Virus record (IMG/VR): IMGVR_UViG_3300014202_000529 | Coordinates: 32,001 to 96,000 of that record | Reading direction: 5' to 3' (one strand) | Length of the DNA: 64,000 nt | From: a virus | Taxonomy: Duplodnaviria; Caudoviricetes | Part shown: positions 27,211 through 56,338 of the stretch, piece by piece | Layout of the letters: every line of letters begins with the position of its first letter | How positions within the stretch are numbered: the stretch's first letter is position 1 | Translations under genes and position numbers: made by a program | The notes under the pieces: model-generated | Seen by the model: the letters and a program-made list of their open reading frames with translations, nothing else | Database searches by the model: none | Told to the model about the DNA's origin: nothing

Positions 27211-27286
27211 TGGTAGCGGGTTAACGAGTTGCACGTTAAACTCAAGGTTATGAGCCTTGACGGGTCGCTGTCCCCTTCCACCCGCA
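27211..27286 (-). tRNA. tRNA-fMet-like (CAT)
   Basis: Unpaired 1:72, GGCTCATAACC anticodon arm, CCA. Confidence 0.8.
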
Positions 27287-27292
27287 AATTTT

Positions 27293-27420
27293 AAAACTGA
27301 GAGGCCGTGCTTCCGTTACACCACATTCCTACGTTACCGATCTTACTGGTGGCCATCCAGGAGTCTTAATTCATGATCGGTGTTCAGAACAATCGGATTT
27401 GAACCGTTCCTGCCCCGTTA
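27293..27420 (-). ncRNA. Circularly permuted tRNA-like RNA 2 (YrlA-like architecture)
   Basis: Order: GGGGC, T arm CGG-UUCAAAU-CCG, acceptor-like stem closed by an ACCGAUC/GAUCGGU insert, D arm GUGU-AACGGAA-GCAC, GCCUC. Confidence 0.7.
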
Positions 27421-27497
27421 TGGTGCCTCTGGTAGGACTCGAACCTACACTAAACAGGCTCTCGACCTGCCGACTCTGCCAATTGGTCTACAGAGGC
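27421..27497 (-). tRNA. tRNA-Leu(GAG), short variable arm, C33
   Basis: GCAGG-TCGAGAG-CCTGT arm, CCA. Confidence 0.83.
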
Positions 27498-27501
27498 GAA
27501 A

Positions 27502-27579
27502 TGGTCTGGGCGGCAGGATTTGAACCTGCGATTTCTCGCCTCCAAAGCGAGAGGAGTGGCCGGACTCTCCTACACCCAG
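27502..27579 (-). tRNA. tRNA-Pro(TGG)
   Basis: Cloverleaf, CCA. Confidence 0.9.
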
Positions 27580-27587
27580 ATATATTT

Positions 27588-27662
27588 TGGCGCTCCTTGT
27601 GGGTATCGATCCCACTTCATATGCTTGAAAGGCATATATCCTAGCCAGTAGACGAAAGGAGC
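27588..27662 (-). tRNA. tRNA-Glu(TTC)
   Basis: Cloverleaf, CCA. Confidence 0.87.
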
Positions 27663-27670
27663 AAAAATTT

Positions 27671-27744
27671 TGGTGGACCTTGACGGTAACCCTCCGTCCC
27701 CGCCCGGGTGCAAACCGGGAATGCTCGTTCAACACCTAAGGCCC
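27671..27744 (-). tRNA. tRNA-Ala(TGC)
   Basis: G3:U70, CCA; atypical T-loop. Confidence 0.82.
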
Positions 27745-27751
27745 AATACCC

Positions 27752-28005
27752 ACCATTTAACCTCCACGAAGCAGGAGGCACCATCTTTCTGGGGTCCATA
27801 AGGAGAGTCCCAGAAATTAAGCTGGTGGACTTACTTACCGTCTAAGGGTATCTAGTGAACCAATCTAGCCCTTTATCGGCTACGGAGCGATCCACAACCC
27901 CTAGACTACCTCTATCTATGTAACCCCCGCACCACGTCTTTGAAGCCGATCCAATCCAATTTAACGGCGCGAGCGACTTCCTCTAACAATGATACTGAGG
28001 GGTCC
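27752..28005 (-). ncRNA. Putative ~250-nt structured RNA between tRNA-His and tRNA-Ala
   Basis: CUCGCGCCG/UGGUGCGGG, GUCUAGGGG/CCCUUAGAC with GUGGA/UCCAC pseudoknot, UUCUGGG/CCCAGAA, GCCUCC/GGAGGU. Confidence 0.55.
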
Positions 28006-28079
28006 TGGGGTGATCGGTGGGTAATGCTCCCACTTTTCCTGGGCCACAACCAGGCGCATTTCTTTTATGCTACGACCAC
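28006..28079 (-). tRNA. tRNA-His(GTG)
   Basis: Cloverleaf, C73, CCA; no encoded G-1. Confidence 0.85.
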
Positions 28080-28084
28080 AACTG

Positions 28085-28275
28085 ATCCACTATTTTTCAA
28101 GTGGAAATTGTTACCCCTTTACCCCACCGTGCGTAATGAGAACCACCGCAACAAAGGCAGTGGAAGAGATAACTCCATCGATCCGGGTCTCATGGAGCCG
28201 GAAATTGCGGGCATTTGATGGGTAGCGCCCTACTACCTTAGTGCAGTCTTCCTCTTGCGGAGTAGTTTCTGCCAC
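28085..28275 (-). ncRNA. Putative ~190-nt structured RNA between tRNA-Thr and tRNA-His
   Basis: CCGCAA/UUGCGG, CCGG/CCGG crossed with CUCCAU/AUGGAG (H-type pseudoknot); no ORF on the coding strand. Confidence 0.5.
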
Positions 28276-28276
28276 A

Positions 28277-28352
28277 TGGAGCCGCCAACTGGACTTGCAC
28301 CAGCCTATTCCTGCTTACAAGACAGGCGATCAACTATCTGACCCATAGCGGC
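28277..28352 (-). tRNA. tRNA-Thr(TGT)
   Basis: Cloverleaf, CCA. Confidence 0.87.
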
Positions 28353-28403
28353 ATATCTCTTTTAACACATAAACCAACAGTATCGTCATTGACGCATAGA
28401 CCA

Positions 28404-28507
28404 GTGTATTGGGTGCAGGATTTCTGGGATGGTGTGCCCAAAGCCTACCTGCGCTTCTCACGGTGCACCTACTGAGTGTGCTTGGTGTTTACACTAACCC
28501 AATACCC
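28404..28507 (-). ncRNA. Putative ~105-nt multi-stem RNA directly after the HNH stop
   Basis: GUAUUGGGU/ACCCAAUAC closing stem enclosing GCAC/GUGC and GCAGG/CCUGC arms. Confidence 0.5.
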
Positions 28508-28513
28508 CGTTTC

Positions 28514-29047
28514 CTATTTCAATTCGACATTCCAGTACAAGTAATCTGCCCATGTTTCTGGCATCTTGCGCAATCCCAACGTCACTGTTACCACTTGGGA
28601 CCATACTGGTTGCTTAGGTTTCTTGAGCAACTTCATTCCTGCTTGCTCTGGTGTCCTACCCTCTTTCTTAGAGTTACATGGGACACATGCCGTTACAATG
28701 TTCTCCCAAGTCTTCGTTCCACCCTGAGCAACCGGTTTCACGTGGTCAAATGTCAACTCTTCTGATTCAAACTTTTGAGCACAGTACTGGCAATGAAAAC
28801 CGTCCCTAGTGAAAATGTTCAAACGAGTAAATTTCACTGGTGCTTTTCTGCGAAAACGAACCGGAACCAACATCCTCAACACCGAAGGAATCTTCATGCT
28901 AAACGAAATAGAATGGATTTCCTCTTCGTGCTCTTCAATAACTTCTACTTTACCAGTCCAGAGCAAAGTGATTGCTCGCTGCCAATTGACAACTTGTAGA
29001 GGTTCATATGAGCTGTTCAAGAGCAATGTCATATGCATGATAACCAC
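28514..29047 (-). CDS. HNH endonuclease (McrA-like)
   Basis: LLLNSSYEPL, RDGFHCQYC, TFDHVKP..QGG..TWENIVTAC..CN.KK; own promoter TTGACA-17-TAGAGT. Confidence 0.93.
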   Translation of the reverse strand: MVIMHMTLLLNSSYEPLQVVNWQRAITLLWTGKVEVIEEHEEEIHSISFSMKIPSVLRMLVPVRFRRKAPVKFTRLNIFTRDGFHCQYCAQKFESEELTFDHVKPVAQGGTKTWENIVTACVPCNSKKEGRTPEQAGMKLLKKPKQPVWSQVVTVTLGLRKMPETWADYLYWNVELK

Positions 29048-29099
29048 CCTCCAGTTTCCACTACTCTAACACACCACAATTCACTTGTCAACTAGTATT

Positions 29100-29173
29100 T
29101 GGCATGGGATGCAGGAGTCGAACCTGCGCCGGCTGTTTTGGAGACAGCAATGCTACCGTAACACTTATCCCAT
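29100..29173 (-). tRNA. tRNA-Trp(CCA)
   Basis: Cloverleaf, CCA. Confidence 0.9.
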
Positions 29174-29178
29174 ATATT

Positions 29179-29252
29179 TGGTACGCCTCCACAGAATTGC
29201 ACTGTGATCTCCCGCTAATCAGGCGAGGGTACTGCTGTTGTACGAGAGGCGT
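29179..29252 (-). tRNA. tRNA-Ile(GAT)
   Basis: Cloverleaf, CCA. Confidence 0.85.
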
Positions 29253-29851: not shown

Positions 29852-31108
29852 TTATGCTCGATACTGGACCACTACGCGATGCTGTTCCAAGGTTATTATA
29901 TCAGTTGGTTCAACCACCTTACTGCAGGAGAAATAAACTACCCAATCACTATCAGTGTTGATTGCATGGTTGGTATTGACGTTTGCAGAAGTGCTGCCCC
30001 CATAAAAATTTTGCACTGCGAGGGAACTTATTTGTTGTTGTGTATTTCCACGGTTATAGATGATTCCAGATTGATGGAAGGATATATGATTTGTTGCTGT
30101 GATACTATTGATAATCTGACTAGCAGGGCCCAATGCTCGAATACTTATTATCTTGTTGTTGACTGTTCCCCCCATCGTCCAGGTTGCAAAACACTGGACC
30201 CAACCATTTGGACCCATAGATCCACCCGGCACAGTAACCGTTGCCATCGTTTGGAAACCTGTGGTATTTGACGCCACCACCGGAATGGCACTACTAAACA
30301 CTGCAACAGGTTGGTTGTTTGATAATATTAGTGCCGCATTAGAATGGGCTCTTGCATATTGGTCTGTTGTGTTTGCCACTGCAACTGTGACTACATCTGT
30401 GCTTTGATTTGTGGTGATGCTGATACCATCCCCAGCTACCAATGTCAAAGTGTCTGCATTTGCGTCAGAAACAATATTATTTTGACCTGATACTGAAATA
30501 GTAGAAAAGCTATTGATAGAAGATGAAATGGTTATGGTGTTGTCCGACCCGGACACATCGATACCAGAACCAGGAGAAAGCACAACAACATCTGCATTGC
30601 TCTCTGCGAGCAAGCTTCCCTTATCCTGGATGCCAATAGACGAAAAAGCATTCTGTGCTCTAAGGTTTGCCAAATCAAAAGAAGAATTGGAATGGGCGCG
30701 GGCAAACCCATCCAGTGCTGTTGATGTAACAGTAATGGTGTTGTTCCCCGGATCTGTGGTGATGGAAGTTCCAGTTCCGGGCGTGATTACTAAAGTATCA
30801 GAATTGGATGCAGCAACAATGTTGTTTTGCCCAGACACTTCGATTGTCACAAATGCATCCTGCACTGTGGAATTTGCCTTCTCGAATGCGGCATTTGCTA
30901 CAGTTCTTGCTTCATCATCTGAGTTTCCGTTTGAAATGGTAGTGTTCGCCCCACCAGGTGTTGCTCCATCGCTTAAACGAATAGATCCAGCACCCGGATC
31001 ATAAAACAAATCACCAGGTTGACCAATGAAATTAGTGACTTGCGTTCCACCTAGTTTTTGTACAAGTACTTTATACGTAACGTTGTTCGCCATAATACCC
31101 CCAGACAC
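29852..31108 (-). CDS. Fibre/virion adhesin-like protein, paralogue 3
   Basis: N-terminal GDLFYDP..IRLSDG.TPGG module, repeated DTLTL.AG.GISITT units. Confidence 0.6.
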   Translation of the reverse strand: MSGGIMANNVTYKVLVQKLGGTQVTNFIGQPGDLFYDPGAGSIRLSDGATPGGANTTISNGNSDDEARTVANAAFEKANSTVQDAFVTIEVSGQNNIVAASNSDTLVITPGTGTSITTDPGNNTITVTSTALDGFARAHSNSSFDLANLRAQNAFSSIGIQDKGSLLAESNADVVVLSPGSGIDVSGSDNTITISSSINSFSTISVSGQNNIVSDANADTLTLVAGDGISITTNQSTDVVTVAVANTTDQYARAHSNAALILSNNQPVAVFSSAIPVVASNTTGFQTMATVTVPGGSMGPNGWVQCFATWTMGGTVNNKIISIRALGPASQIINSITATNHISFHQSGIIYNRGNTQQQISSLAVQNFYGGSTSANVNTNHAINTDSDWVVYFSCSKVVEPTDIITLEQHRVVVQYRA

Positions 31109-31121
31109 CTTTCACTATAAA

Positions 31122-32360
31122 TTATGCTCCGTATTGTGCTATTACCGAATACTGTTCTAATGTCACTCGTTCAGTTGCAACCGTTTTAGTCACTGCGAAA
31201 TGGATTTCCCAATCATTGTCAGTATTAATTGTATGGCTAAAACCACCTTCTGAAGAAACCGCACCATAGTAAAACTGAGAAACGGGACCACTAATTTGTG
31301 AATTGACATTGCCCCTATTATGTATATCACCAACCATATACAGCGAAATCTGGTTTGTTGCTGAGAGGTTTGTAAGTCTTGTTCCAGTGGAACTAAGTGT
31401 GCGAATGCTAAGGTCCTTAGCCGAGGCACTTGCATCCATTGTCCACAATGAAACACATTGTACCCATCCATTGGGACCCAATAGACCACCAGGTACCGTA
31501 ACAGTAACAAGCGATTGAGCCGTATTTACATTTGCAGCCAGGGTTGACACCGCAGAGTGTGCGACGATCATAGGACCGGTATTTAGTGCCGCAAATGCAC
31601 CATTCGCATGATCTCTTGCAAATTGGTCAATTGTATTTGCTGCCGAAATAGTCAGAGTAGCGTTCGCTGGATCTGTGGTGATGGATATTCCGTTTCCTGT
31701 TGCCAAGGTCAAGGTATCGGCATTTGCATCTGCAACCACATTATTTTGGCCAGAGACCGCAATGGTCGAAAAGCTATTGATCGAAGATCTGATAATGATG
31801 GTATTGTCAGACCCGGACATATCAATACCAGCACCAGGTGAAAGGATCACACTATCTGCATTCGTGGCTGCAGTTACGTTTCCCTTATCTTCCACTGCAA
31901 TGATGCTGAAAACATTTTGCCCCCTGGTATTTGCAAGATTGAATGCAGAATTGACATGAGTTCTTGCGTATGTGTCGTTTGCTGTTGTTGTGATTGTAAG
32001 AGTAGTATTTGTTGGATCTGTGGTGACTGATACCCCCACTCCAGCACGAATACGCAATATACTTGTGTTAGATGTCGAAACAATATTATTCTGCCCAGCA
32101 ACATTTATGCTGACAAATGCATTTTGTGCAACACTGTTCGATTTCTCAAATGCCAATGCGGCAACAGTGCGAGCAATAATATCAGTGACCTCTGCGCTGA
32201 CTGATGTGCTTCTTCCACCTGGTGTAGATCCATCGCTTAGACGCAGTTCTCCGCGTCCTGGATCATAAAATAATTCTCCAGGTAGCCCGATAAAGTCAGT
32301 GACTTGTCTACCACCGATCTTTTCAATATAAATTCTATAGGTAACATTATTTGCTGACAT
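31122..32360 (-). CDS. Fibre/virion adhesin-like protein, paralogue 2
   Basis: Same architecture as neighbours. Confidence 0.6.
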   Translation of the reverse strand: MSANNVTYRIYIEKIGGRQVTDFIGLPGELFYDPGRGELRLSDGSTPGGRSTSVSAEVTDIIARTVAALAFEKSNSVAQNAFVSINVAGQNNIVSTSNTSILRIRAGVGVSVTTDPTNTTLTITTTANDTYARTHVNSAFNLANTRGQNVFSIIAVEDKGNVTAATNADSVILSPGAGIDMSGSDNTIIIRSSINSFSTIAVSGQNNVVADANADTLTLATGNGISITTDPANATLTISAANTIDQFARDHANGAFAALNTGPMIVAHSAVSTLAANVNTAQSLVTVTVPGGLLGPNGWVQCVSLWTMDASASAKDLSIRTLSSTGTRLTNLSATNQISLYMVGDIHNRGNVNSQISGPVSQFYYGAVSSEGGFSHTINTDNDWEIHFAVTKTVATERVTLEQYSVIAQYGA

Positions 32361-32436
32361 AATACCCCCTAATCACACCCTTCCTTATATTTATGAACAC
32401 AATCCAAACGACATATGTAGAATGGAAGTATTAACA

Positions 32437-33675
32437 CTAGTCTCTATGATTAACAACTACTCGATATTGCTCCAAGGTAACACCATCAGTAGCTACTGAT
32501 TTCGTCACAACAAACAATATGGACAAATCGCTACTGGTGTCAATGGACGATGTTAATTGGTTAACAGAAGCGGTTGCACCATAATGCGCCGATATGCCAG
32601 CCGGGGCAGCAATCTGAGATGATACGTTTCCTCTATTATAAAATAGACCACCCTGGCGAAACCCAACCTGGGTGGAGAGTGTCAATGATGCAATTGCGAA
32701 TCCTGCCGCAGCGTTAAGTCTGATGCTAACGGGCTTATTATTAGAACCATTAGCGGACCAAATTGCTGTACAGTGCACCCACCCATTTGCACCAATCGAT
32801 CCACCAGGAATGATAACGGTGGCTAATGCTTGTGTTGAGGTTGTGACTTCTGCAACAATCGGAACGGCAGAATGTGCAATAACCACTTCATCTGTGTTTG
32901 CTGTTGTGAATGCTTCGTTCGCCCAATCACGCGAAGTTTGATCGATAGTATTTGCTGCAGTAAATGTGATGGTATCAGTGACAGAATTTGTTGTGATGCT
33001 CACCCCATTGCCAGCTACCAAGGTCAAGGTATCGGCATTTGCATCTGCAACCACATTATTTTGACCAGAGACCGCAATAGTCGAAAAGCTATTGATCGAT
33101 GAAGAAATAGAAATAGTATTTCCATCGATGCTCATATCTATACCAGCACCAGGCGAAAGAATCACACTATCTGCATTGGTGGCTGATATGAGACTACCCT
33201 TATCCTGAATTGCAATAGTGGAAAAAGCATTTCCTGCTCTGACGTTTGCCAGCGCATATGCACCATTCGCATGATCTCTTGCAAATTGGTCAACTGAATT
33301 TGCTGCAGATATGTGCAAACTACTGTTGCTGGTGTTTGTGGTAAGCTGAATCCCAGACCCAGCTACAATGACCAGGGTGTCATTGTTTGATGTTGCAACT
33401 ACGTTATTTTGACCAGCAACGTTCAATGTGACAAATGCGTTTTGTGCTGCACCATTTGCTTTGGTTCGAGCACCCGTTGCTCTTGCGCGGGCATAATCAT
33501 CAGAACCATCGATGCTAGTGGTGACATTGACGCCGCCCATAGTAACACCGTCACCAAGACGCAATTCTCCGCTTCCTGGATCATAGAATATCTCACCGGG
33601 GGCCGCAATGAATTCATCATACGGCATTCCACCAAGCTTCTCTAAAAATACCCTGTAAATTACATTATTAGCCAT
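32437..33675 (-). CDS. Fibre/virion adhesin-like protein, paralogue 1
   Basis: Same architecture; late promoter upstream. Confidence 0.6.
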   Translation of the reverse strand: MANNVIYRVFLEKLGGMPYDEFIAAPGEIFYDPGSGELRLGDGVTMGGVNVTTSIDGSDDYARARATGARTKANGAAQNAFVTLNVAGQNNVVATSNNDTLVIVAGSGIQLTTNTSNSSLHISAANSVDQFARDHANGAYALANVRAGNAFSTIAIQDKGSLISATNADSVILSPGAGIDMSIDGNTISISSSINSFSTIAVSGQNNVVADANADTLTLVAGNGVSITTNSVTDTITFTAANTIDQTSRDWANEAFTTANTDEVVIAHSAVPIVAEVTTSTQALATVIIPGGSIGANGWVHCTAIWSANGSNNKPVSIRLNAAAGFAIASLTLSTQVGFRQGGLFYNRGNVSSQIAAPAGISAHYGATASVNQLTSSIDTSSDLSILFVVTKSVATDGVTLEQYRVVVNHRD

Positions 33676-35524: not shown

Positions 35525-37039
35525 CTATCTAGTTAACTCATGATAACACTTTTCAATATGCTTGTCAACCACCCCATCAATTCTAGAACGAATTGAAGAA
35601 AGGGTATTCAGTCTCACCGAAAGACCATTACTCAGACCATTATGGAATACTAAATCAAGAAGACCCAACCGCATAGAATCTTCTTTTGTTAATTCGTCAA
35701 CTAAAACCAACCCCCCATTACGATCCTCTACCGCAAGATACCCCTTTGCGGATTTCTTTGTTCCATTGTCAGTTTTGGGGTCTTTAAACACGTGAAGCTC
35801 TTTCCCATCAACATATCCCGCAGTCGCTTTAATTGCCATCCCGAATGTATCCCGCGTCACATGTTGATAGGTGTAGCTCCCGATCCCAAACACAATATTT
35901 GTAGAAGCAAATCCAAGCGACATGAGCTGTCTGCAAATTTCATCTGCTCTCTCAAGTGTGATGGAATCTCCATAGATCATTCCAATATGAGGGTCAAGTT
36001 GTCGATATCCCTTTGAGTTGACCGTTCCACCAAATACCTTCCAGAGCAATCGAGCAGTTCCTTCGTTCTCTGGTGTTCCCAATGGAGCATCAAGATCACC
36101 ACAAATGATCTTCACTGGATCTCCTGAGTCTGGACGAATAACAACCTTTCCATCCCTGGACATGATTTTATCTTTCAGGGTTGGAAGTGTCTCTGTTAAA
36201 ATCTTCCAATAATCCCATGTATCGGAGACGATAGACACAATACCCTTTGGATAGACCTTGCTGATCAATCGATCATAGGTTTCTAACTCAGTTTCCTTTC
36301 CACCAAAACACATCACCGAATGCTCCGTTGCAGCAACAGACCCACCAATCATAGTGTCCCCAATGACTGCATGATAATATGTTTCCAGCATATCAATTGC
36401 AGGGATGGTATCTGTTCCATAAAAAGAGAGTAGGTGTCCTGCACTTGACACCGAAGCACTCTCTAGACTCGTCTGACCACGCATTGAAAAGTCATGTCCT
36501 TGCCACAAGACGAATTCTGGAAGATCGGAACTAGCTGCAGCGTATTTTTCCAACAATTTCCTATACTCGAATGCAATGGTGGCTACTGTAATTGGATGCC
36601 AAAGAACCGTTGACATGAGAGTTTCGAGGAAATTGGTCAACCAAAAGAACTTGGGATTAGTGTTCTCAATTGTTAAAAACGGAACTCTTAATGGGACAAG
36701 TGTTCCCTCTGGGAGTGCTCGGATACTAATGGGGAGATATCCCAGATCATGCAATTCCTCAATGTGGTCCAGTGGCACCGAATCGGGACCCAATGAAGTA
36801 TCAAGCCTTCGTTTATATTTGAGAAGTACTTCCTCTTTTGGTTTATTGAAAAAGTTTTCGTTGAACTCCTCGATCAAATATTTCTTGATAAAGTATTGGA
36901 GACCGAAGAATACAACATGATTCACACCAGGGATTCTAGAGCTTCGCGCCGTCATGTTCGAGTAGACGTACTGAGTATTTTCTGGGTACTGTCTACGATG
37001 ATCGGTTTTGTAGAAATCGCTGTAGTGAATCGGGGTCAT
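35525..37039 (-). CDS. nadV: Nicotinamide phosphoribosyltransferase-like (NadV / Namat of NARP1)
   Basis: DFYKTDH, HDFSMRG, ATEHSVM, SIVSDTWD, IRPDSGDP, YGDSIT, TRDTFG.A.KAT. Confidence 0.93.
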   Translation of the reverse strand: MTPIHYSDFYKTDHRRQYPENTQYVYSNMTARSSRIPGVNHVVFFGLQYFIKKYLIEEFNENFFNKPKEEVLLKYKRRLDTSLGPDSVPLDHIEELHDLGYLPISIRALPEGTLVPLRVPFLTIENTNPKFFWLTNFLETLMSTVLWHPITVATIAFEYRKLLEKYAAASSDLPEFVLWQGHDFSMRGQTSLESASVSSAGHLLSFYGTDTIPAIDMLETYYHAVIGDTMIGGSVAATEHSVMCFGGKETELETYDRLISKVYPKGIVSIVSDTWDYWKILTETLPTLKDKIMSRDGKVVIRPDSGDPVKIICGDLDAPLGTPENEGTARLLWKVFGGTVNSKGYRQLDPHIGMIYGDSITLERADEICRQLMSLGFASTNIVFGIGSYTYQHVTRDTFGMAIKATAGYVDGKELHVFKDPKTDNGTKKSAKGYLAVEDRNGGLVLVDELTKEDSMRLGLLDLVFHNGLSNGLSVRLNTLSSIRSRIDGVVDKHIEKCYHELTR

Positions 37040-37863
37040 ACTGCCCTCCCATCCATTTGTTTTTGATGTTGTTTTGATAACAATGGCACCATTCCCTCTC
37101 TCGTCCACACTTCATCAATAATACCATCAAACACTTCCAGACCCTTAGAAAATATACCATGCGTCACCATGAGAACAATTTTCTTTGGAGCATGATGAAG
37201 TCTAATTTCTTTTGCAATTTCGATGAATGTTCTTCCACCATCACAAATATCATCTACCATCACACAGGTTTTACCGTCTAATTCATGTGCGGGCGCATTA
37301 ACCTTGACTCCGGTAATGTCTCCGGTTTGTGTATTTCGAAGCTTACTGCACTCCACAACCCCCTTAACTTTAAAGGATTCCTTAGAGAGACGATAGATTT
37401 TCTTAAGCGCCCCTGCATCAGGGGAAATGAGAATCACATTATCATCATGGGAAAACCATGAATTCAACATAGGATAGAAAATTGTCGATTGGTGAACGAC
37501 ATACACATTATCTAACAATGCAGGAAGAACATCGGAATGGGGGTCATGTGTTACGACTTCCTCTGCTCCCAACTGATTAATTAACCCACACATCACCTTG
37601 AGCGAAAAACAATCCCCATAATTGGCTACACGATCCTGGCGAGAAAATGGAAAATAGGGAATGATCAATTTATCTATTTTATACCCATGTTGTTTTAGAG
37701 CACTACTCAAAAGTAGTATCTCCATGATCTCCTCAGTGGATTCAAATAACCACTCAACATTCCCCTTATCAGGATATGTCACATCGTCCTCAAGAAGGAG
37801 TTGAACATGCATTTCGCCGGCAGGAAATTTGATTTTCTTATATTTCACAAATGACTTAATCAT
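37036..37863 (-). CDS. Ribose-phosphate pyrophosphokinase-like (Prs / Adps of NARP1)
   Basis: FPAGE, PYFPFSRQDR, DPHS, SPDAGA, MVDDICDGGRTF, VTHGIFS. Confidence 0.92.
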   Translation of the reverse strand: MIKSFVKYKKIKFPAGEMHVQLLLEDDVTYPDKGNVEWLFESTEEIMEILLLSSALKQHGYKIDKLIIPYFPFSRQDRVANYGDCFSLKVMCGLINQLGAEEVVTHDPHSDVLPALLDNVYVVHQSTIFYPMLNSWFSHDDNVILISPDAGALKKIYRLSKESFKVKGVVECSKLRNTQTGDITGVKVNAPAHELDGKTCVMVDDICDGGRTFIEIAKEIRLHHAPKKIVLMVTHGIFSKGLEVFDGIIDEVWTREGMVPLLSKQHQKQMDGRAV

Positions 37864-38146
37864 CTAATTCCTCCAGGTCTTTATCATCAAGTTCACACCA
37901 TCGACAACCAGTACCTAGGGTTTCAGTCATACAGTGCATACAGTGACTACAAAGTGTTCCTCGGATCTCTCCTACTATCCGATGCCCCTTGAACCAACAT
38001 ACAACCAAGTTCCACTTCGTAACGATCCACTCTTGAACCTGCATTGGCACCCATGTTGGGATACCTCTATCAGTGGTCCATCCCAACCACCAATCATCCT
38101 CATCTAGCACTGCCCTGAGTCTAACACCCTTATCCATTATTGTCAA
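37856..38146 (-). CDS. Hypothetical protein
   Basis: ORF in operon. Confidence 0.45.
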   Translation of the reverse strand: MTIMDKGVRLRAVLDEDDWWLGWTTDRGIPTWVPMQVQEWIVTKWNLVVCWFKGHRIVGEIRGTLCSHCMHCMTETLGTGCRWCELDDKDLEELDD

Positions 38147-38765
38147 CTAATCCCTTTGGACTTTCATCCCCCTCAATGGTCTTCTTAAAGAACGAATTTG
38201 CAGCAACATGATAGATAACGATACCCTCTGGCTTCATGAACCCAGGAGCAGCAACGCTCCCATTAAATGCCAAATGAGCAAGGGTTACGTTAATCTCGTT
38301 GGTTGTGAACATTCCATCGTACAATACTGGTACCACATGACAACAGGCAGGTTTATTATCTTCCTTCCAACGATCTGTATTGAATAGAGAAAACCTCTTT
38401 TCCTTCAACCCATACTTACGCTGAATACCTGCGCCCCACCACTCTCCGAAATGTCTTCCTATCCCAAGACCTGTAACCAACTCATCCTTATGTTGGAGTG
38501 CCCAAGCACCAAACCCAAAATTATCACATTTCAACACATCATTCTCGACAAGCCATCGAGAGCGACTGCCCGCAAACAATTTACCATCCTCTGTGATAAG
38601 GAGTTGAGCATTGGTCCCATCAATCTTTTCAGTAACCACACAACGACGAGAAAGCCGTGGAATTTTATTGAATGTTTGAAATTCTGTCTCAGCTATTTTG
38701 CGGAGAATCATTGTATCAATTTCATCCCTAATCGGATCGTCTGTGTTCATGATGTCACCTTCCAT
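38130..38765 (-). CDS. RNA ligase (Rnl2-like adenylyltransferase)
   Basis: TEKIDGTNA (motif I), SRSRW, FGEW.G.GIQ, PEGIVI. Confidence 0.85.
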   Translation of the reverse strand: MEGDIMNTDDPIRDEIDTMILRKIAETEFQTFNKIPRLSRRCVVTEKIDGTNAQLLITEDGKLFAGSRSRWLVENDVLKCDNFGFGAWALQHKDELVTGLGIGRHFGEWWGAGIQRKYGLKEKRFSLFNTDRWKEDNKPACCHVVPVLYDGMFTTNEINVTLAHLAFNGSVAAPGFMKPEGIVIYHVAANSFFKKTIEGDESPKGLVDNNG

Positions 38766-50285: not shown

Positions 50286-51348
50286 TAGTTCCTAGGTTCG
50301 ATTGGATAATGCTGCTGGATCTCGTTCCACAACCGATGATAAAGCTTGTCATAATGCGATTGTGCCGCAGCCAGGACCGCTTTTGCCTCGGTCACCTGAA
50401 CAAGAAGACTATGCACTTCCGTCCTCGTCATCTTATCCATAATCTTCATCCTCCAGGGTATCTCGTTCCGTCAATTGCTCTAGTAAGTCATTGATCGCTT
50501 CTTCTTCGGTCTCACCGGTTCCGCATTCCTTATTAATGCTGTCTGGTGCACCATCATAGGTGTTCTCGTCAATCGCATTCCACCCAAAGTATGGTTGGTA
50601 TGTGGTTTTGATTTTAATCGTTGCCACTGTTATTGCTCCTTTAAGATCTCCTCGATCATTGCATTCCGACTTTCAACCAGCTTCTTCGCCCCCTCTGCTG
50701 CATCCTTCGTCATACTTGCTGTCGTATACATGATGAACATCACTATACCAAGCACCACCCCCGTAATAATCATCCTCATGATTTCACCCCTTTGTTTTGT
50801 TGGTCATTCATCATGATTTAAGTCTACCACACCCGTCCAAATTGTCAAGTCTTATGTGGGTCCCCATATTGAGCATCAAACTGCTTAAAATGATCATCAC
50901 AGATCGTATGACTCACCCGCGTATCGTCTAGGGGTTCCTTGTCCCCCATATCCGCAGGTTTCCCCTCTTGTAGACACCATGCGCATACGAGCTTCATTGA
51001 TTCCCCCTTCGACGGATCTCTTTCGCTTCCGTCACCACCTTGTCAAGTTCCCTCATGAAATGGATTGGAGTCGCGTTATCGGCAACATCAATCAGCTTAT
51101 CCACAAGTGTTCGTAATTGTTCACATTCACAGGGTTCCATTGGCCCTCACTTTTGGGCATTCTTTAGGCTTATCCCCACCAACTCTTTTGGTACCCTCAG
51201 TGCTGCAAAGAACACATCATCTGCTGCATCCGCTTCAACCAAACGCTCTACCCGCTTGACCAACCGTTCACAGTCTAGAACCAATTCTTTTATTTTCGTC
51301 ATATTCATCATGATTTAAGTCTACCACATCCCACCGGTCTGTCAAGCG

Positions 51349-51768
51349 TCATGTTTTGGTGGGTGTATCTTTTTGGATACAGTTACCATTTGCTGCCTTT
51401 CGAGCACTATCAATCCAGTGTTGCAAGTTGTTCAGAGTCGCGTAGTCTTTCGGTAGTGCATTATTATTCATCAACTCAATAATCTGCAGCATCCCGAACA
51501 CATGAGCCTTCAAATGTTCAACCTCATGTTTTGTATCAGTGTCACTAAAATGGCGATTTAGTAAATCGGTATCCTCCGGTCTAGATTTCAATTTAAGACC
51601 TATACTTTCCCCATACGCAACCCATTTGCCTTGCTTGAGAGCACAAAACCCAGCACTCACTGCAGTATGGTTGTAACTCTCTTTTGGAATCGTCCTATGT
51701 GGAATGGTCTCAGGAAATATAATCGGCACCAGATCATCAAACTCAGTCTTCACCACCACATATTTCAT
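51349..51768 (-). CDS. Hypothetical protein coupled to bcsA
   Basis: Overlapping start/stop; PIIFP..I.H, VSAGFC, YGES..L.LKSRPED. Confidence 0.6.
   Translation of the reverse strand: MKYVVVKTEFDDLVPIIFPETIPHRTIPKESYNHTAVSAGFCALKQGKWVAYGESIGLKLKSRPEDTDLLNRHFSDTDTKHEVEHLKAHVFGMLQIIELMNNNALPKDYATLNNLQHWIDSARKAANGNCIQKDTPTKT
51363..51382. repeat. 20-bp palindrome, copy 3
   Basis: GTGTATC-TTTTTG-GATACAG, 17 bp upstream of -35 (51340-51345). Confidence 0.8.
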
Positions 51769-53723
51769 AACAACTCCCTTCGTTGTTGGTCCTGTGCCAC
51801 ATGCGTTTCAATTTGCTGCACTGCAGAGGTTTCTAACTCTGGGTAAACTTTCAACCCGCGTTCATCTTCCCACACTCCACTATGACCAAACAGTAGAGTG
51901 ATAAGTTGACCTTCCACATGTTTCATATCCTCCGAATCAAATTTCACCGACACCCGCATACCATCTAGACGAACAATGGTTGCCATGAGCACAAATACTA
52001 TACCCACATCTTCATCATTAAATGCAACCGGAACCCGCTTCCCCACCAAGAATTTTGGTGACATTGATGTCAGGGTTATTGCTGCACCGGTCATGCTCAA
52101 ATCATACACCTTTCCATATTCTGCACCTATCAGAGCGGGAATGTTATGCAACCCCTGCCGCACATGACGGAATGCACCGCGGCGATGCTCTGTTGGTTGA
52201 GCTGTCCAAAGAGCTGCAAGTACCATCCCCAGATTGATAGTTGCCCAGACCATCGCATATGGAACTCCAAGATGATAATCCCCACTCTGCAATTCAAATG
52301 CACCCAGGATTATACCCAACCCCAACAAACAAGCAAGCACCATCAAAGGATACGTGGGTGCCCACATGCTCGCCCCATGATCCTGCTGCTCACCCTTTGG
52401 GGTAACTTCAAACACTCGTTCTTTTCGAGGAAAACAAATCGACAATGCTGCTCGACACAGACTTGGTGCCATCGCTACTTCATAGATATCAGAAGCAAAC
52501 GGATTGCGCATCCTAGCAACAGAAAGATGCATGGTGGCAATGAGTGCCAGGTACACTGCACCAAATTGTATCACTAGGTGCCACAGATCGGTTGCAACTG
52601 GGGTGATTCCAAACAAAAGCATTGTTAGTGGTGCAACCAACCCGATCATACGAGGAAACCCAAACATGAAGTAGAACATTGATCCAAGATAATCGATCCG
52701 CTGTTGCCACGTCAACCCGCGCTTCAATAACGGATTGTCACCAAAGAACACTTGCATACATCCAATCGCCCACCGCTTCCGCTGCTTCACATACCCATGA
52801 AACGTTTCCGGCATGAGTCCTGCTGATAAGGGTTGATTCACATGGACCGATTTCCATCCCCGCGAATGGAGTTCCATGCTTGTATGGATATCCTCGGTAA
52901 TCGTCTGAGTCATGAAGCCACCAATTTCCAATAGAGCCGATCGGCGCACCAACCCACCAGACCCCGCGAAGAATGCGCTATTGTGTGCATTTCTCCCAGG
53001 TTGCAGGACAGAGAAAAAGAGTTCCTGTTCGTTCTGAATCTTCCGCGATAGCCCAGATTGAAAGATGTCAGGATTATAGAAGTGTTGTGAAGTTTGCACC
53101 ATCGCCACTTTAGGATCACTAAAATGAGGTAGTGTCTCCTGCACAAAGTTTTCTGTGGGTACATGATCCACGTCAAATATTGCAATCACATCCCCAGATG
53201 TTCGAGGTAATGCCGCATTAATATTCCCAGCTTTCGCATGTTGGGGAGTATTGGTCCGGGTGTGATAGCGACACCCCAATTCCTCTGCCAACAGTCGCAC
53301 TGATTCGCGCTTTCCATCATCCAAAATGTGAACAGTGATGGAGTACCGACCCCGCTGCATCAAACAACCATAAACAGTTTGTCTCAGGAGTTCAATGGGT
53401 TCTTGGACCACACAGACAAACATATCCACACTAAGAGGTTCAACCTTGTCCGGTTTGGGGGTTGTATGAAACCCATGCCAAGTTTGAAACGCAAAAAATC
53501 CAAACTGAATGGTCCCATATAACTCTGCACCCCACAAAACAATACCTGCAACCAATGACCACGTTTCATCAGTGGGGATTGTTTCAGTGACACGCCAGAC
53601 CATGTAGCGCACATAGAGCAGACCGCTCAACATCAATGCGACTTTTCGTTGTTTTGATACCACTGCGGCAAAAATTACCATCAACCAAATACCCGTAACT
53701 ACCAAACTCGTCATCATTTTCAC
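51765..53723 (-). CDS. bcsA: Cellulose synthase catalytic subunit BcsA-like (GT2 plus PilZ)
   Basis: LDDG, HAKAGNIN, FDVDH, QTSQHFYNPD, FFAGS, TEDI, QRKRW; TM helices; PilZ RRGAFR and DLSMTG. Confidence 0.92.
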   Translation of the reverse strand: MKMMTSLVVTGIWLMVIFAAVVSKQRKVALMLSGLLYVRYMVWRVTETIPTDETWSLVAGIVLWGAELYGTIQFGFFAFQTWHGFHTTPKPDKVEPLSVDMFVCVVQEPIELLRQTVYGCLMQRGRYSITVHILDDGKRESVRLLAEELGCRYHTRTNTPQHAKAGNINAALPRTSGDVIAIFDVDHVPTENFVQETLPHFSDPKVAMVQTSQHFYNPDIFQSGLSRKIQNEQELFFSVLQPGRNAHNSAFFAGSGGLVRRSALLEIGGFMTQTITEDIHTSMELHSRGWKSVHVNQPLSAGLMPETFHGYVKQRKRWAIGCMQVFFGDNPLLKRGLTWQQRIDYLGSMFYFMFGFPRMIGLVAPLTMLLFGITPVATDLWHLVIQFGAVYLALIATMHLSVARMRNPFASDIYEVAMAPSLCRAALSICFPRKERVFEVTPKGEQQDHGASMWAPTYPLMVLACLLGLGIILGAFELQSGDYHLGVPYAMVWATINLGMVLAALWTAQPTEHRRGAFRHVRQGLHNIPALIGAEYGKVYDLSMTGAAITLTSMSPKFLVGKRVPVAFNDEDVGIVFVLMATIVRLDGMRVSVKFDSEDMKHVEGQLITLLFGHSGVWEDERGLKVYPELETSAVQQIETHVAQDQQRRELL

Positions 53724-53940
53724 TAACCCTTTCTAAGATTTCCTAATGGTTGCCGATTTACTTGGGTTCGATGTAACAGGGTCTTCCTGCTGCTTCGTAC
53801 TCAATCATTCGTAGTTTCGCTTCTTGGTAGGTTACACACTCGACAATCTTCTCTTCAACGCACAATACCCACTTCGCAGTCTTCCCAGCGATTTTTTTCA
53901 TGTTCTCCCCCTTGGTTTTCTTGTTCATCATCATGATCTA

Positions 53941-53993
53941 AGAATACCATATCAACGGATAGTGTCAAGGGGGGTGTATCTAAAAGGATACAC
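53941..53993 (-). promoter_or_regulatory. Promoter upstream of bcsA with palindrome copy 4 (53974-53993)
   Basis: GTGTATC-TAAAAG-GATACAC 5 bp upstream of TTGACA-16-TATTCT; leader AGATCATGATGATGAACAAGAAAACCAAGGGGGA. Confidence 0.85.
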
Positions 53994-54465
53994 TATGTTT
54001 TCGCATCCAGTAGTGGGTGATAAGAGCAGATAGTTCCTCACGGTAAGACAGTGCGTCATGTGTATCGAATACCACATGGATCTGTCTCATACTGTAGGTT
54101 TGTGTTTTGGTGAGCCAAGCATTCATGCTGATAATCGTGACTTCATCATCAGATTTCAGTTTGATCCTCACATACGGACCCTGATGCAATGGTGAAATGG
54201 GTTCATCGAGAGTAATTCCTGCTCCCATGAGACTCATGTTTGTAATGATGCCATGATACCCATTGACCGATACAGAAATACCGGACACGTCATACCGACC
54301 ATGTAATTTAGAGCGTCGGTCTAGATCTGCTGCTTTTCTACGAGAATCGCGCACACTGAGCACCGCGATAGAGCAGAACACCACAACCAACATAGCAATC
54401 ACTATCATCCACATCACACCGTAGATTTGTGTCACAAGTTCCATACGTCCCCCTAATAGATCCAT
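53980..54465 (-). CDS. Membrane-anchored PilZ-domain protein
   Basis: N-terminal TM; DRRSKLHGR and TNMSLMGAG PilZ-like motifs; similar to the BcsA C terminus. Confidence 0.7.
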   Translation of the reverse strand: MDLLGGRMELVTQIYGVMWMIVIAMLVVVFCSIAVLSVRDSRRKAADLDRRSKLHGRYDVSGISVSVNGYHGIITNMSLMGAGITLDEPISPLHQGPYVRIKLKSDDEVTIISMNAWLTKTQTYSMRQIHVVFDTHDALSYREELSALITHYWMRKHSVSF

Positions 54466-54977
54466 TCGGAAATATTCACAACTGCAGATAACTTACTCTC
54501 CGTCTTCACCAACACATGCACCGGCACCCCAATCCTCCGTAGCACTCGAACCACTGGCGCAATCGTCACAAAATACGCATACTCCACACCCAGCGATTTC
54601 AGATCCCTATGGATACTCTTCAACAGCATCGAGACGATAGGAAACCCATCATGACGCACAAATGGATCAACACAGAGACGCGAAACTTCCGCGCTGCTCT
54701 TTTTATTGAATGGGGTGGGCAGCACATCAAGAAAATCTTTTTCGATCATATATTGGTGTTCTTCATGAATCACGCGAGCATACGCGATTGGTGCATCATC
54801 CATATACACCGCGTAGGGCATACACTGTGCATCATATTCATCCTGGTCCTGTCGGTCTGGGGTCTCCGGTATCCAGTGCAATTCTTCAGCGAAAACTTTG
54901 TAGCGCAACCGCATTGCGGCAGGACTCTGCACACCAGACACCACGCGATACATAGGACCGTGCCAGTTAGGTCTCAT
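54453..54977 (-). CDS. LuxI-like acyl-homoserine-lactone synthase (GNAT fold)
   Basis: RLRYKVFAEELHW, DQDEYD, AYARV, EVSRLCV; start MRPNW overlaps the stop of an upstream Cys-rich ORF. Confidence 0.75.
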   Translation of the reverse strand: MRPNWHGPMYRVVSGVQSPAAMRLRYKVFAEELHWIPETPDRQDQDEYDAQCMPYAVYMDDAPIAYARVIHEEHQYMIEKDFLDVLPTPFNKKSSAEVSRLCVDPFVRHDGFPIVSMLLKSIHRDLKSLGVEYAYFVTIAPVVRVLRRIGVPVHVLVKTESKLSAVVNISEWIY

Positions 54978-55131
54978 CTTGACATCGTTTCCTACAGTCA
55001 TCACAACATGCACACATTGTGCCCAGATCGGCATACAGATCTTCTTTGTATGGACAAGTGTGTAGCGTCTTCGAACGGGGATTATCACAATCCCTGGCAT
55101 GCAGACCTGGACACTTCTTTTCTTTCCTCAT
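54967..55131 (-). CDS. Small Cys-rich protein (54 aa)
   Basis: Manual translation ...HTCPYKEDLYADLGTMCACCDDCRKRCQDET. Confidence 0.55.
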   Translation of the reverse strand: MRKEKKCPGLHARDCDNPRSKTLHTCPYKEDLYADLGTMCACCDDCRKRCQDET

Positions 55132-55311
55132 GACTCAGTACTCCACAACGGATGCTGTATACACATACGCATCCTTCCCCTGTGCTTGCGCTTGTTTCAC
55201 ATCACGTTCCGCAAGTGACTTGGACTCGTATTCCTCTTGCATGAGTCCGTTCACAATGACTCGGTAGACTGTGCGGTAGTTTGCTTTTTGCATTCTCATT
55301 GTTGAATACTC

Positions 55312-55659
55312 CTATCGAAGGTAGTTCCACCGTCTTGCATGCAACTCCCTCGGATTCACTGTTGCAATGTTCCCGATATCCGCTTTCTTTTTCTTGTTGT
55401 AATCCGGCACTCCATATCCTTTAATATTGTACAATTCCCCTGTTGCACTTTCAACCAGAAATGCACCAGACCCACCACAATCCAGGTATGCGAACTTTTT
55501 CCCCACCTTCTTCAAGTGCCATCTATCATGGGGATGTGTGAAACCCCTTCGAGCAAAATCCTCAGCTTCCAGCTTGTTCAACTCAACCGCAAGCGCCTCG
55601 ATCTTGGTTGTCAGATGTTCCATGATTTCCCCCTTGGTTTTGTTGTTCATCATCATCAT
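55312..55659 (-). CDS. Early hypothetical protein
   Basis: First gene after promoter 55666-55693; likely start MEHLTT. Confidence 0.6.
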   Translation of the reverse strand: MMMMNNKTKGEIMEHLTTKIEALAVELNKLEAEDFARRGFTHPHDRWHLKKVGKKFAYLDCGGSGAFLVESATGELYNIKGYGVPDYNKKKKADIGNIATVNPRELHARRWNYLR

Positions 55660-55719
55660 GGTCTAATCATACCATAGCTGCCAATCTTGTCAAGGGGTCT
55701 CCAAACACTCATGTTTAAA

Positions 55720-55739
55720 GTGTATCCTTTTAGATACAC
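55720..55739. repeat. 20-bp palindrome, copy 5
   Basis: GTGTATC-CTTTTA-GATACAC, 26 bp upstream of -35. Confidence 0.85.
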
Positions 55740-56338
55740 CGCTACTTCCGGTTAATATAGTAATCGACTACCAGATGGAGTAGGGACATGAATATTGACA
55801 CCCCCGCTAAGGCAAGCGCAATGAGTTGCATCCAACCCCCTCGATCATCATGTGACAATATAAACGCAAACATCAACCACAACACGGCGCGAAATTCCCA
55901 TAGTGTATCCTTACTCATGGTTGTATCCCCCGTTTCATCAATTCCTCAATTGCTTTATTGGACGCTTCATTGACCCCCGCTTCATCTAACACCCGATCTA
56001 ACTTCTCCTCGACTTCCTTCAGTTTCGAAAGAAGGAGTATCAATATTTCATGTGAATTTGCATGATCACGGTTCAGTAAGACTTTAGTTTCAAAACGATA
56101 AAATGCTACATCTTCAAGTGTTCTATTCAATAGAGAGATAGCATCCTGTCGCGTCATCTTCTTCATGCTGGGTCCTTCGGAATCCAGATAGATCTAAGAT
56201 CCGGGTGAATGTGCACCGTTTCACCAAGGACCGTATGATGCCAGTATTGTGCACCATCATAGGAAAACTCACCAACCACTTCCAGAGACCGGTAGCGTTT
56301 TCCAACTTCCATCCCCACCGTTCGAACATAGAGTGCTA

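Follow-up and report, generated by a model that had tools for sequence, protein, structure and literature searches.

Phage-encoded receptors of the LuxR type reportedly listen to the quorum signals of bacterial hosts. Roseobacter prophages, of which that of Phaeobacter inhibens T5 is an example, carry xre-luxR-luxI operons that control lysis and lysogeny, and luxI systems occur in 53 of 93 predicted Roseobacter prophages (available text of PMC13345283). In cold seeps, 84 quorum-sensing genes have been listed in 76 viral genomes (available text of PMC12781772). Among bacteria, Nitrospira species carry LuxI/LuxR systems (NmuI/NmuR of N. moscoviensis, NjpI of N. japonica); an active Nitrospirota LuxI has been described (PMC12781772), and cultures of N. 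japonica contain C10–C14 acyl-homoserine lactones (AHLs) (PMC5767232). T4-like phages possess promoter-early stem-loop (PeSL) elements, composites of a stem-loop and an early promoter that are repeated in hyperplastic regions and bound swappable cassettes (available text of PMC4122927). Here we describe a 64,000-nucleotide stretch of DNA (the window), bases 32001–96000 of the 168,789-bp virus record IMGVR_UViG_3300014202_000529, in which three neighbouring genes of a T4-like phage encode a LuxI-family protein (gene C), a PilZ-like membrane protein (gene B) and a BcsA-like glycosyltransferase family 2 (GT2) synthase with a C-terminal PilZ domain (gene A). Positions are those of the window unless the phage genome is named.

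Like the Roseobacter prophages, this phage encodes a LuxI-type synthase of its own. Those phages, however, are temperate and have a cognate LuxR, whereas here the synthase is an orphan in a T4-like genome and, without a receptor in the phage, could only talk to receptors of the host. From the genes and their arrangement, a probable effect of the phage is to change how a biofilm-forming nitrifier signals and makes its coat. A first-pass annotation of the window had presented the three genes as a single biofilm and quorum module; they are neighbours, but they lie in two separate promoter cassettes, one luxI-like and PilZ-like, the other bcsA-like with orf139, and not in one operon. The features of the locus, in the direction of transcription, are the following.

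55719..55740, minus: stem-loop upstream of the luxI-like cassette (−10.5 kcal/mol, z −4.35, equalled by none of 200 shuffles), aligned with eight other copies
55666..55693, minus: sigma-70-type early promoter of the luxI-like cassette (TTGACA, 16 nt, TATGAT, TG before the −10 box; 11 of 12 consensus positions)
55312..55623, minus: orf103, first gene of the luxI-like cassette, its start being the ATG after the conserved leader
55135..55299, minus: orf54, small gene from the open reading frame (ORF) list, included in the PHROG and PADLOC searches
54967..55131, minus: Cys-rich ORF of 54 aa (9 Cys), its stop overlapping the ATG of the luxI-like gene
54453..54977, minus: gene C, LuxI-family GNAT protein of 174 aa (PF00765)
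53980..54465, minus: gene B, single-pass membrane PilZ-like protein of 161 aa, its start overlapping the stop of C by 13 nt
53974..53993, minus: stem-loop between the cassettes, just after the stop of B (−7.9 kcal/mol, z −5.91, equalled by none of 200 shuffles)
53941..53968, minus: sigma-70-type early promoter of the bcsA-like cassette (TTGACA, 16 nt, TATTCT, TG; 10 of 12 consensus positions)
53758..53901, minus: orf47, small leader gene of the bcsA-like cassette, from the ORF list
51765..53717, minus: gene A, BcsA-like GT2 synthase with C-terminal PilZ domain, 650 aa (an alternative GTG at 53723 adds 2 aa)
51349..51768, minus: orf139, translationally coupled to A through a 4-nt overlap of its start with the stop of that gene
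51318..51381, minus: next PeSL-like element, closing the bcsA-like cassette (stem-loop 51364–51381, promoter 51318–51345)

The luxI-like unit opens with the promoter at 55693, behind which come a conserved leader and the Shine-Dalgarno sequence AAGGGGG, and continues through orf103, orf54, the Cys-rich ORF, C and B to a hairpin. The bcsA-like unit runs from the promoter at 53968 through orf47, A and orf139 to a hairpin and the promoter at 51345. The stem-loop between the cassettes was also returned by a generic scan, on the plus strand at 53973–53994; the closing one at 51364–51381 folds less strongly (−4.9 kcal/mol, z −1.89, equalled by 10 of 200 shuffles). Because each cassette begins with a sigma-70-type promoter, early expression driven by the host polymerase is a natural and plausible reading, and to this extent the suggestion in the first-pass annotation that the genes act early in infection holds. 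The elements resemble the PeSLs of T4-like phages in combining a stem-loop with an early promoter and in recurring through a hyperplastic region, and we class them with PeSLs on these grounds. Their sequence family, in contrast, is specific to this phage, the stem-loops have no T-run on the gene strand, and a role in recombination or termination is putative. As for the smaller cassette genes, orf103 had no PHROG, PADLOC or strong Pfam match and the Cys-rich ORF no family match in the PHROG and PADLOC searches, and PADLOC gave no defence-family match for seven cassette proteins. The N-terminal 77 residues of orf139 weakly match phrog_3988, a family of unknown function (E 2.3e-7), with no Pfam match; we regard orf139 as a candidate accessory of the synthase encoded upstream of it.

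Gene A had been called a full-length BcsA with intact motifs. The signature motifs of the E. coli and R. sphaeroides enzymes (D, DxD, TED, QxxRW, FFxGS and HAKAGN, and RxxxR and DxSxxG of the C-terminal PilZ domain) are all found, as DDG133, HAKAGN160, DVDH182, FFAGS249, TED274, QRKRW312, RGAFR513–517 and DLSMTG539–544, with the two PilZ motifs 22 residues apart, and the catalytic and PilZ motifs are invariant in a 13-row alignment. In Pfam, GT2 families match with E-values of 1e-16 to 1e-26, and both Cellulose_synt and PilZ exceed their thresholds (PilZ 32.2 bits against 22.5, and 35.9 bits in a second scan). The CelA model TIGR03030 aligns at E 1.6e-143, residues 7–626 of the protein matching positions 39–683 of 714, and the best solved relatives are BcsA of E. 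coli (PDB 7LBY; 2.4e-87) and of R. sphaeroides (PDB 4HG6; 4.3e-81). An AlphaFold2 model built from the 13-row alignment was poor (predicted local distance difference test, pLDDT, 60.9; predicted template-modelling score, pTM, 0.41) and was not used.

Two considerations count against a plain cellulose synthase. The protein falls below the NCBIfam equivalog cut-offs for BcsA, with 479.3 bits against 699.1 for TIGR03030 and 362.9 against 992 for NF008558, and the activity of BcsA depends on BcsB in canonical systems; in the whole phage genome, the sole match to BcsB reached 9.6 bits and contained two internal stops. A is BcsA-like by every sequence criterion, yet it is not certified as a cellulose synthase. 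Since it belongs to a Nitrospirota subfamily without BcsB, 'cellulose' as its product is an assumption. The BcsA identity given earlier is borne out for the GT2 and PilZ domains.

A search of 5.8 billion proteins for relatives of A gave 912 of 8000 scored candidates at E ≤ 1e-10. Among the best 120 of these 912, which are 45–52% identical to A, every name given by the source that bears a taxon is Nitrospira or Nitrospirota; the name used by JGI is 'cellulose synthase (UDP-forming)'. A genome scan, from which 79 loci were kept, returned 76 titled with a name beginning Nitrospir, two titled 'uncultured bacterium' and one deltaproteobacterial metagenome-assembled genome (MAG). We built a quick maximum-likelihood tree of 36 rows, comprising A, its relative P0003 (on a 150-kb contig), 32 locus proteins spanning the identity range (47 left out), Salmonella BcsA and gp158 of Synechococcus phage S-CBWM1; both outgroups are long branches, so that the root is approximate. 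A and P0003 group together (SH-like approximate likelihood-ratio test, SH-aLRT, 100); the sister of this pair (99) is a Nitrospira clade of 15 rows, N. moscoviensis among them, with other Nitrospirota clades and the deltaproteobacterial sequence outside this group. By sequence, A nests within a Nitrospirota radiation of BcsA-like proteins that lack BcsB and usually carry tandem PilZ domains.

The stand-alone Nitrospirota proteins align with A at 45–50% identity over about 95% of its length and, like A, lack a BcsB partner: no BcsB was found at E ≤ 0.001 in any of the five Nitrospira genomes searched, and the N. moscoviensis homologue has no bcs gene within 8 kb. Unlike A, which stops after its first PilZ domain, they extend to about 757–763 aa with a second PilZ-like domain at the C-terminus. 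The description of A as full length therefore fits when it is set against BcsA but not against its Nitrospira relatives. The phage also differs in having the membrane-anchored PilZ-like B one cassette upstream, whereas neither B nor C lies beside the Nitrospirota genes; tblastn of B, C and orf139 against the 79 loci gave no match. Nitrospirota carry either a single stand-alone BcsA-like gene encoding tandem PilZ domains or two of them (L046 7911–10196; L005–L082), including two paralogues of a single Nitrospira genome on one contig (L005 and L053), and the genomes checked had no BcsB. The product and role of this subfamily, brought to light here, appear undescribed in the available text of the literature searched.

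A phage precedent exists for the synthase alone. Synechococcus phage S-CBWM1, like ours a T4-like myovirus with a BcsA-like GT2 protein, encodes gp158, annotated 'putative cellulose synthase', to which A is 33.8% identical over residues 24–381. The match, however, covers the GT2 half only, gp158 is a distant outgroup on a long branch, and its neighbour is a different gene: gp157, an efflux-pump membrane-fusion-like protein, precedes and overlaps it (L117 2586–5938), a pairing which we take to resemble the cyanobacterial arrangement of a synthase and an HlyD-like partner. Its source is likely cyanobacterial rather than Nitrospirota. Our search of the open literature found no paper on the function of the S-CBWM1 protein. 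Within PHROG, A matches families 30838 (E 1e-80) and 22641 (E 1e-78).

We infer that the host belongs to the Nitrospirota, and probably to the Nitrospiraceae, because A nests in Nitrospirota diversity, because the best cellular matches of C are Nitrospiraceae proteins, and because one of 371 Nitrospiraceae genomes (MAG G154) holds a 7.8-kb contig with T4-like head genes (C33:1–7807, L204; GC 0.53). The capsid, protease and scaffold proteins on this contig are 72.5%, 57% and 51% identical to those of the phage, and its capsid protein is the best capsid match found; the gp23-like capsid protein of the phage is at most 62% identical to those of isolated phages, of which Methylophilales phage Melnitz and Synechococcus myoviruses are the closest. 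It remains a real if lesser possibility that the host is not Nitrospira but another aquatic Gram-negative bacterium, the genes having come by another route or through an ancestral phage. The capsid resemblance to Melnitz and the Synechococcus phages points that way, as do the genes for PhoH, a CobS-like protein and peptide deformylase, which are typical of marine and freshwater T4-like phages. Composition, too, weighs against Nitrospira, with a genome GC of 0.428 against 0.53–0.67 for the three Nitrospira genes measured, and the G154 contig is a binning association in an incomplete 1.7-Mb MAG in which neither A nor the phage DNA polymerase, the two proteins tried, has a match. A spacer-type search of one 20-kb phage segment (about 12% of the genome) against the 371 genomes produced no convincing match, only five short ones with E-values of 0.003–0.007, treated as chance, and the G154 phage contig itself. 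Against another host stand the strong support for the position of A, the cellular matches of C, the binning of the best capsid match with Nitrospiraceae, and an array of 28 tRNA genes (17172–29252, minus strand). These tRNAs serve most amino acids, with four species each for Arg and Leu and three for Ser; the number is large for a phage of 169 kb and is consistent with one that differs from its host in composition. On this circumstantial evidence a Nitrospirota host is likely. We know of no Nitrospira phage isolate; in the available text of the literature, Nitrospira-infecting viruses appear as predictions, with no mention there of quorum sensing or cellulose.

For gene C, 54977 is the most likely true start and gives a 174-aa protein beginning MRPNW; it is preferred because the longer frames of 215 or 193 aa overlap the Cys-rich ORF and because the additional N-terminus is disordered (residues 1–20 of the 193-aa form in an AlphaFold2 model with pLDDT 87.7). 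The LuxI assignment and signature residues proposed in the first-pass annotation are supported. Pfam Autoind_synth (PF00765) matches with 40.4 bits in the 215-aa form and 40.8 in the 193-aa form, against a gathering threshold of 24 (E 3e-10), and a whole-genome search recovers the match at 40.5 bits. The conserved active-site residues of LuxI are R25, F29, W35, D46, D49, R70, E101 and R104 (available text of PMC12781772). In the 174-aa numbering, C keeps all eight, as R25, F29, W35, D46, D49, R68, E97 and R100, aligned with R25, W35, D46, D49, R70, E101 and R104 of a plasmid TraI. Seven of the eight positions are invariant in an alignment of 14 rows (C, its relative P0122, 8 of 16 Nitrospiraceae LuxI proteins and four plasmid AHL synthases); the F29 column has a Tyr in one Nitrospiraceae row.

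By HMMER against 1.84 billion cluster representatives, C found 252 matches at E ≤ 0.001. One is close: P0122, a 186-aa protein on an 11.9-kb contig, 44–45% identical to C. The next best is a GNAT protein of a Nitrospira species, whereas a word-based homologue search returned only C itself. Relatives of C are present in 81 of 201 Nitrospiraceae genomes, with a best identity of 38% (E 6e-24); this agrees with the report of LuxI in 36% of Nitrospirales genomes (available text of PMC12342949). These are the best cellular matches of C, and they share its Pfam family and the eight signature residues. A LuxR homologue adjoins the relative of C at all 16 Nitrospiraceae loci examined (Pfam verified two of them, and BLASTP against that pair the remainder; a contig end interrupts one). 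The phage protein differs from the Nitrospira systems in having no LuxR in its genome, in a C-terminus about 60–70 residues shorter, in its predicted phage early promoter and in its position in the tree. In a quick tree of 91 rows (C, the first 70 of the listed representatives that reach 180 aa, the 16 Nitrospiraceae proteins and the four plasmid proteins, with shorter and later representatives left out), C and P0122 form a pair (98) on a long stem and fall within an unresolved group that lies outside the clade of Nitrospiraceae LuxI proteins. Forcing them to join that clade costs 15.2 log-likelihood units and is not rejected (approximately unbiased test, AU, p 0.306), which shows nothing either way.

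An alternative is that C is not an AHL synthase but another long-chain N-acyltransferase of the GNAT clan, of the FeeM, exosortase-associated or OlsB-like kind, whose product would be a lipid or lipo-amino acid and not a quorum signal. Several observations lean in that direction. Acetyltransf_5 reaches 38.4 bits on C, and FeeM, at 26.8 bits, narrowly misses its threshold of 27. On the NCBIfam AHL-synthase models it scores 29.7 bits against a cut-off of 292 (NF010408) and 27.7 against 250 (NF052393), and its best NCBIfam score, slightly higher at 34.8 bits and ahead of TraI, is with TIGR03694, the model of exosortase-associated acyltransferases (cut-off 111.95). C and P0122 end about 25 residues before plasmid TraI and earlier than all other rows of the 14-row alignment, and to the missing LuxR is added the placement of C in an unresolved group of the tree. 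Every one of these NCBIfam scores is, however, far under its cut-off, so that none decides. In a family alignment of 50 members (C with 49 of its top 52 HMMER matches), all 50 match both TIGR03694 and the TraI AHL-synthase models, again far below the cut-offs and with a best E of 5e-21 for the AHL models, and because every member matches both, these models do not discriminate. No member of TIGR03694 over the cut-off was found in 61 Nitrospiraceae genomes. Autoind_synth, the top Pfam match of C, is found in 50 of the 50 members, Acetyltransf_5 in 49 and FeeM in 36.

Comparison with solved structures favours LuxI. A profile of C and its 49 relatives matches all seven distinct solved AHL-synthase sequences (TofI, EsaI, LasI, two BjaI, MesI and RpaI) with E-values from 1.3e-21 to 8e-14 and does not match FeeM at E ≤ 1; C alone matches TofI at 6e-5. 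In a Foldseek search with the model of C, LasI, TofI, BjaI, RpaI and MesI are best, with TM-scores of about 0.63–0.71, and AHL synthases occupy ranks 1–6 and 8–10, whereas FeeM comes at rank 17 (TM-score 0.61, 10% identity). Together with the eight LuxI residues at TraI spacing and nearest cellular relatives that are linked to LuxR at every locus examined, these results make an acyltransferase of another kind unlikely, and profile, residues and predicted fold support C as LuxI-type rather than FeeM-type.

JGI metagenomes were scanned for relatives with an alignment of C and P0122. The scan gave 215 relatives, of which 80 loci were kept, the best full-length match being 37% identical; none of the 80 shares a second gene with the ORFs of the window, save one unrelated pair (L158). 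One match, 47% identical to C over 53 residues, lies on a contig of 167 kb (L161) that proved to be bacterial and to carry a truncated luxI beside luxR. On that contig the luxR (7925–8959) overlaps, on the opposite strand, the luxI-like frame (7989–8423), in which similarity to C is lost after the N-terminal motif; the frame is probably a decayed luxI.

Gene B had been described as a membrane-anchored PilZ protein. The anchor is evident as one strong hydrophobic helix at residues 20–38, but the PilZ assignment is less secure. PilZ (PF07238) matches below threshold, at 20.8 bits and at 21.6 in a second scan against 22.5 (E 5e-4). The protein contains RDSRR39–43 and NMSLMG76–81, but its only RxxxR stands 33 residues before NxSxxG, compared with 22 in A, and the sequence at the canonical distance reads RRSKL. 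Equally unfavourable, a word-based homologue search returned only B itself, and the similarity of B to A and to the A family is not significant; hhalign against the PilZ region of the A family gave a probability of 2%. In the ESM Atlas, the look-alikes of B are PilZ clusters, commonest in Nitrospirota, with a feature score of 0.89, below the lead level of 0.9, and the Atlas model of B (pLDDT 0.71) aligns to the PilZ parts of other proteins with TM-scores of 0.50–0.61. Weak BLAST matches link B to the first PilZ region of some Nitrospira homologues of A (best E 2e-4 in a database of 120 sequences). These weak indications come from several sources, and 'PilZ protein' is a likely, though not certified, label for B. 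The idea that B is a duplicated TM8–PilZ piece of A was dropped, the comparison with A and its family being non-significant.

The phage lacks the usual partners of these proteins. No LuxR-type Autoind_bind match at E ≤ 1 and no GGDEF domain were found anywhere in the 168,789-bp genome, which, with the BcsB result above, extends to the whole phage what the first-pass annotation had noted for BcsB and LuxR in the window. Consequently c-di-GMP (cyclic di-GMP), the AHL receptor and the substrates must come from the host.

Taken together, the genes point to the following course of events. A T4-like phage lineage would have captured the module genes long ago from Nitrospirota bacteria, and in this genome they would be wired into a pair of adjacent cassettes, expressed early, within a hyperplastic region. 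Both cassette promoters would be read by the sigma-70 RNA polymerase of the host soon after infection. C would make an acyl-homoserine lactone from host S-adenosylmethionine and acyl-ACP or acyl-CoA; with no LuxR in the phage, the signal could be read only by LuxR of the infected cell and its neighbours. A, placed in the inner membrane, would be switched on by host c-di-GMP binding its PilZ domain (R513xxxR517, D539xSxxG544), would polymerise a UDP-sugar, most likely UDP-glucose, and would extrude a beta-glucan without BcsB, as its Nitrospira relatives may do. B, co-translated with C, is probably a second c-di-GMP-responsive accessory and may serve in trans in place of the second PilZ domain, which is present in cis in the Nitrospira enzymes. 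The net effect would be to push the infected cell and its microcolony towards a high-density, matrix-embedded state; the purposes suggested in the first-pass annotation (masking of receptors, aggregation of hosts or counting of infections) are conjectural. We judge this composite of captured Nitrospirota genes, early cassettes, AHL production and c-di-GMP-gated glucan synthesis to be moderately probable. Its most specific form, in which a virulent T4-like Nitrospira phage forges the quorum signal of its host with an early, receptor-less LuxI, so that every infected cell sends a false high-density AHL to the microcolony, while a host-derived glucan synthase, c-di-GMP-gated and BcsB-independent, wraps the cell and a PilZ protein acting in trans makes up for the missing domain, we put forward tentatively and consider doubtful.

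The genes might instead be passengers with no adaptive role, hyperplastic cargo shuffled by PeSL-mediated recombination and only incidentally active. They lie in a region of many small ORFs of no known family, bounded by recombinogenic cassettes, and BcsB, LuxR and a diguanylate cyclase, regarded as necessary in other systems, are missing from the phage; the motifs of B are imperfect. Nor was any related phage found to carry the module: megablast of 51300–55200 against phages and tblastn of C against phages gave nothing of the kind, and IMG/VR scans with A, with an alignment of the A family and with the alignment of C and P0122 found no related phage with it. Yet A has diverged to 45–52% identity and acquired phage GC while keeping all its catalytic and PilZ motifs, C keeps its eight signature residues at 44–45% identity to its only close relative, and no gene has internal stops. 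Second, divergent copies exist elsewhere, on the contigs of P0003 and P0122, which suggests long retention. We regard mere cargo as quite improbable.

If the composite account is right, a T4-like phage with a synthase and no receptor would be a pure sender, steering its neighbours rather than its own lysis decision. In the most specific form of the account it would be the first lytic phage to act as sender only in AHL signalling, and the module would be the first means encoded by a phage of influencing aggregation in a key nitrifier. That a signal synthase is accompanied by an exopolysaccharide synthase gated by c-di-GMP suggests that the phage controls a matrix-embedded, aggregated lifestyle. 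Should the host be Nitrospira, this would bear on nitrification in wastewater flocs, biofilters and soils, where aggregation and AHL signalling are of practical interest.

The first-pass annotation knew of no such combination in a T4-like phage. The combination was not met elsewhere in our searches either, but its parts have precedents in the LuxI of Roseobacter prophages and the 'cellulose synthase' of S-CBWM1. An orphan, receptor-less LuxI in a T4-like genome appears to be new in the literature searched, though the list of quorum-sensing genes from cold-seep viruses could bear on its novelty. Also new as far as the literature was searched are the pairing of a LuxI-like protein with a PilZ-like protein and a Nitrospirota-type synthase in neighbouring early cassettes, and the probable nitrifier host for such a phage.

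The phage record itself carries direct terminal repeats and is rated 100% complete; we confirmed an exact repeat of 91 bp at the ends of the genome. PHROG scans of 31 ORFs in the window and 59 outside it recovered a T4-like structural set (major head protein, scaffold, prohead protease, portal, sheath, large terminase, baseplate wedge and hub) and a T4-like replication set (DNA polymerase, clamp and clamp loader, UvsX, a gp32-like single-stranded DNA-binding protein, primase and helicases), with core-gene matches as strong as E 1e-303, which places the phage among the T4-like myoviruses, as had been supposed. Further matches are to PhoH, a CobS-like protein, peptide deformylase, nicotinamide phosphoribosyltransferase (NAMPT) and phosphoribosyl pyrophosphate (PRPP) synthetase, RtcB, and DNA and RNA ligases. 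No integrase or repressor was seen among these 90 larger ORFs. Almost all larger ORFs of the phage lie on the minus strand, as do A, B and C. The module genes have a GC of 0.447–0.488, within the range of four phage core genes (GC 0.393–0.500), and a GC at third codon positions (GC3) of 0.455–0.526; both values are far from those of the bcsA-like homologue of N. moscoviensis (GC 0.665, GC3 0.852).

That the region is a host-contig chimera or assembly artefact, as the cellular look of the module genes and their absence from phages in public collections might suggest, is excluded for practical purposes by the terminal repeat that closes the genome, the T4-like core genes, the shared strand, the phage-like GC and GC3, an identity of at most 52% between A and any cellular gene, overlaps that couple the module genes with neighbouring phage ORFs, and one phage-specific element of stem-loop, promoter and leader that flanks both cassettes and recurs elsewhere in the genome. 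The genes are real phage genes, as the first-pass annotation had proposed.

This element, read in intergenic DNA, consists of a hairpin (GTGTATC-loop-GATACAC), TTGACA, a 16-nt spacer, a TATtcT-type −10 box with a preceding TG, a conserved leader (TAGATCATGATGA...), an AAGGGGG Shine-Dalgarno sequence and ATG. Its promoter part has 17 matches in the genome, 15 of them on the gene strand, against 4.95 expected from 20 mononucleotide shuffles. Nine copies, listed here by their promoter positions, align from the stem-loop through the Shine-Dalgarno sequence, and seven of them keep the GTGTATC...GATACAC hairpin.

43507, 50242, 50848, 51345, 53968, 55693, 57818, 61239 and 62236, minus: aligned copies of the element
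5542 and 5851, minus; 62587, plus; and one just outside the window: further promoter-like copies

The further copies were left out of the alignment together with four chance-looking matches. The aligned copies have promoter scores of 9–11 of 12. A generic promoter scan found 18 sites against 14.6 ± 3.8 expected, no overall enrichment, but six of its seven best sites (10–11 of 12 matches with TG) are aligned copies of the element. The copies concentrate in the 50–62 kb region of small unknown ORFs. The conserved leader causes ORF finders to call false MMMNKKTKGE N-termini on three genes.

Elsewhere in the window, three tandem genes of 412–418 aa (29852–33675, minus strand), each matching only the first 50–60 positions of phrog_36222, of unknown function, look like paralogues with a common N-terminal module. 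A pair for NAD salvage, NAMPT and ribose-phosphate pyrophosphokinase, lies at 35525–37863, and an RNA and DNA repair set of RtcB, an ATP-dependent DNA ligase and a nucleotidyltransferase at 11431–16729, with an RNA ligase at 38130–38765. Outside the window, at 112497–124257 of the phage genome (L102/L103), a cytidylyltransferase-like fusion protein, a HAD hydrolase, a glycosyltransferase and phrog_455 proteins form a cluster that may represent a nucleotide-sugar pathway or a pathway for glycosylation of DNA or the virion.

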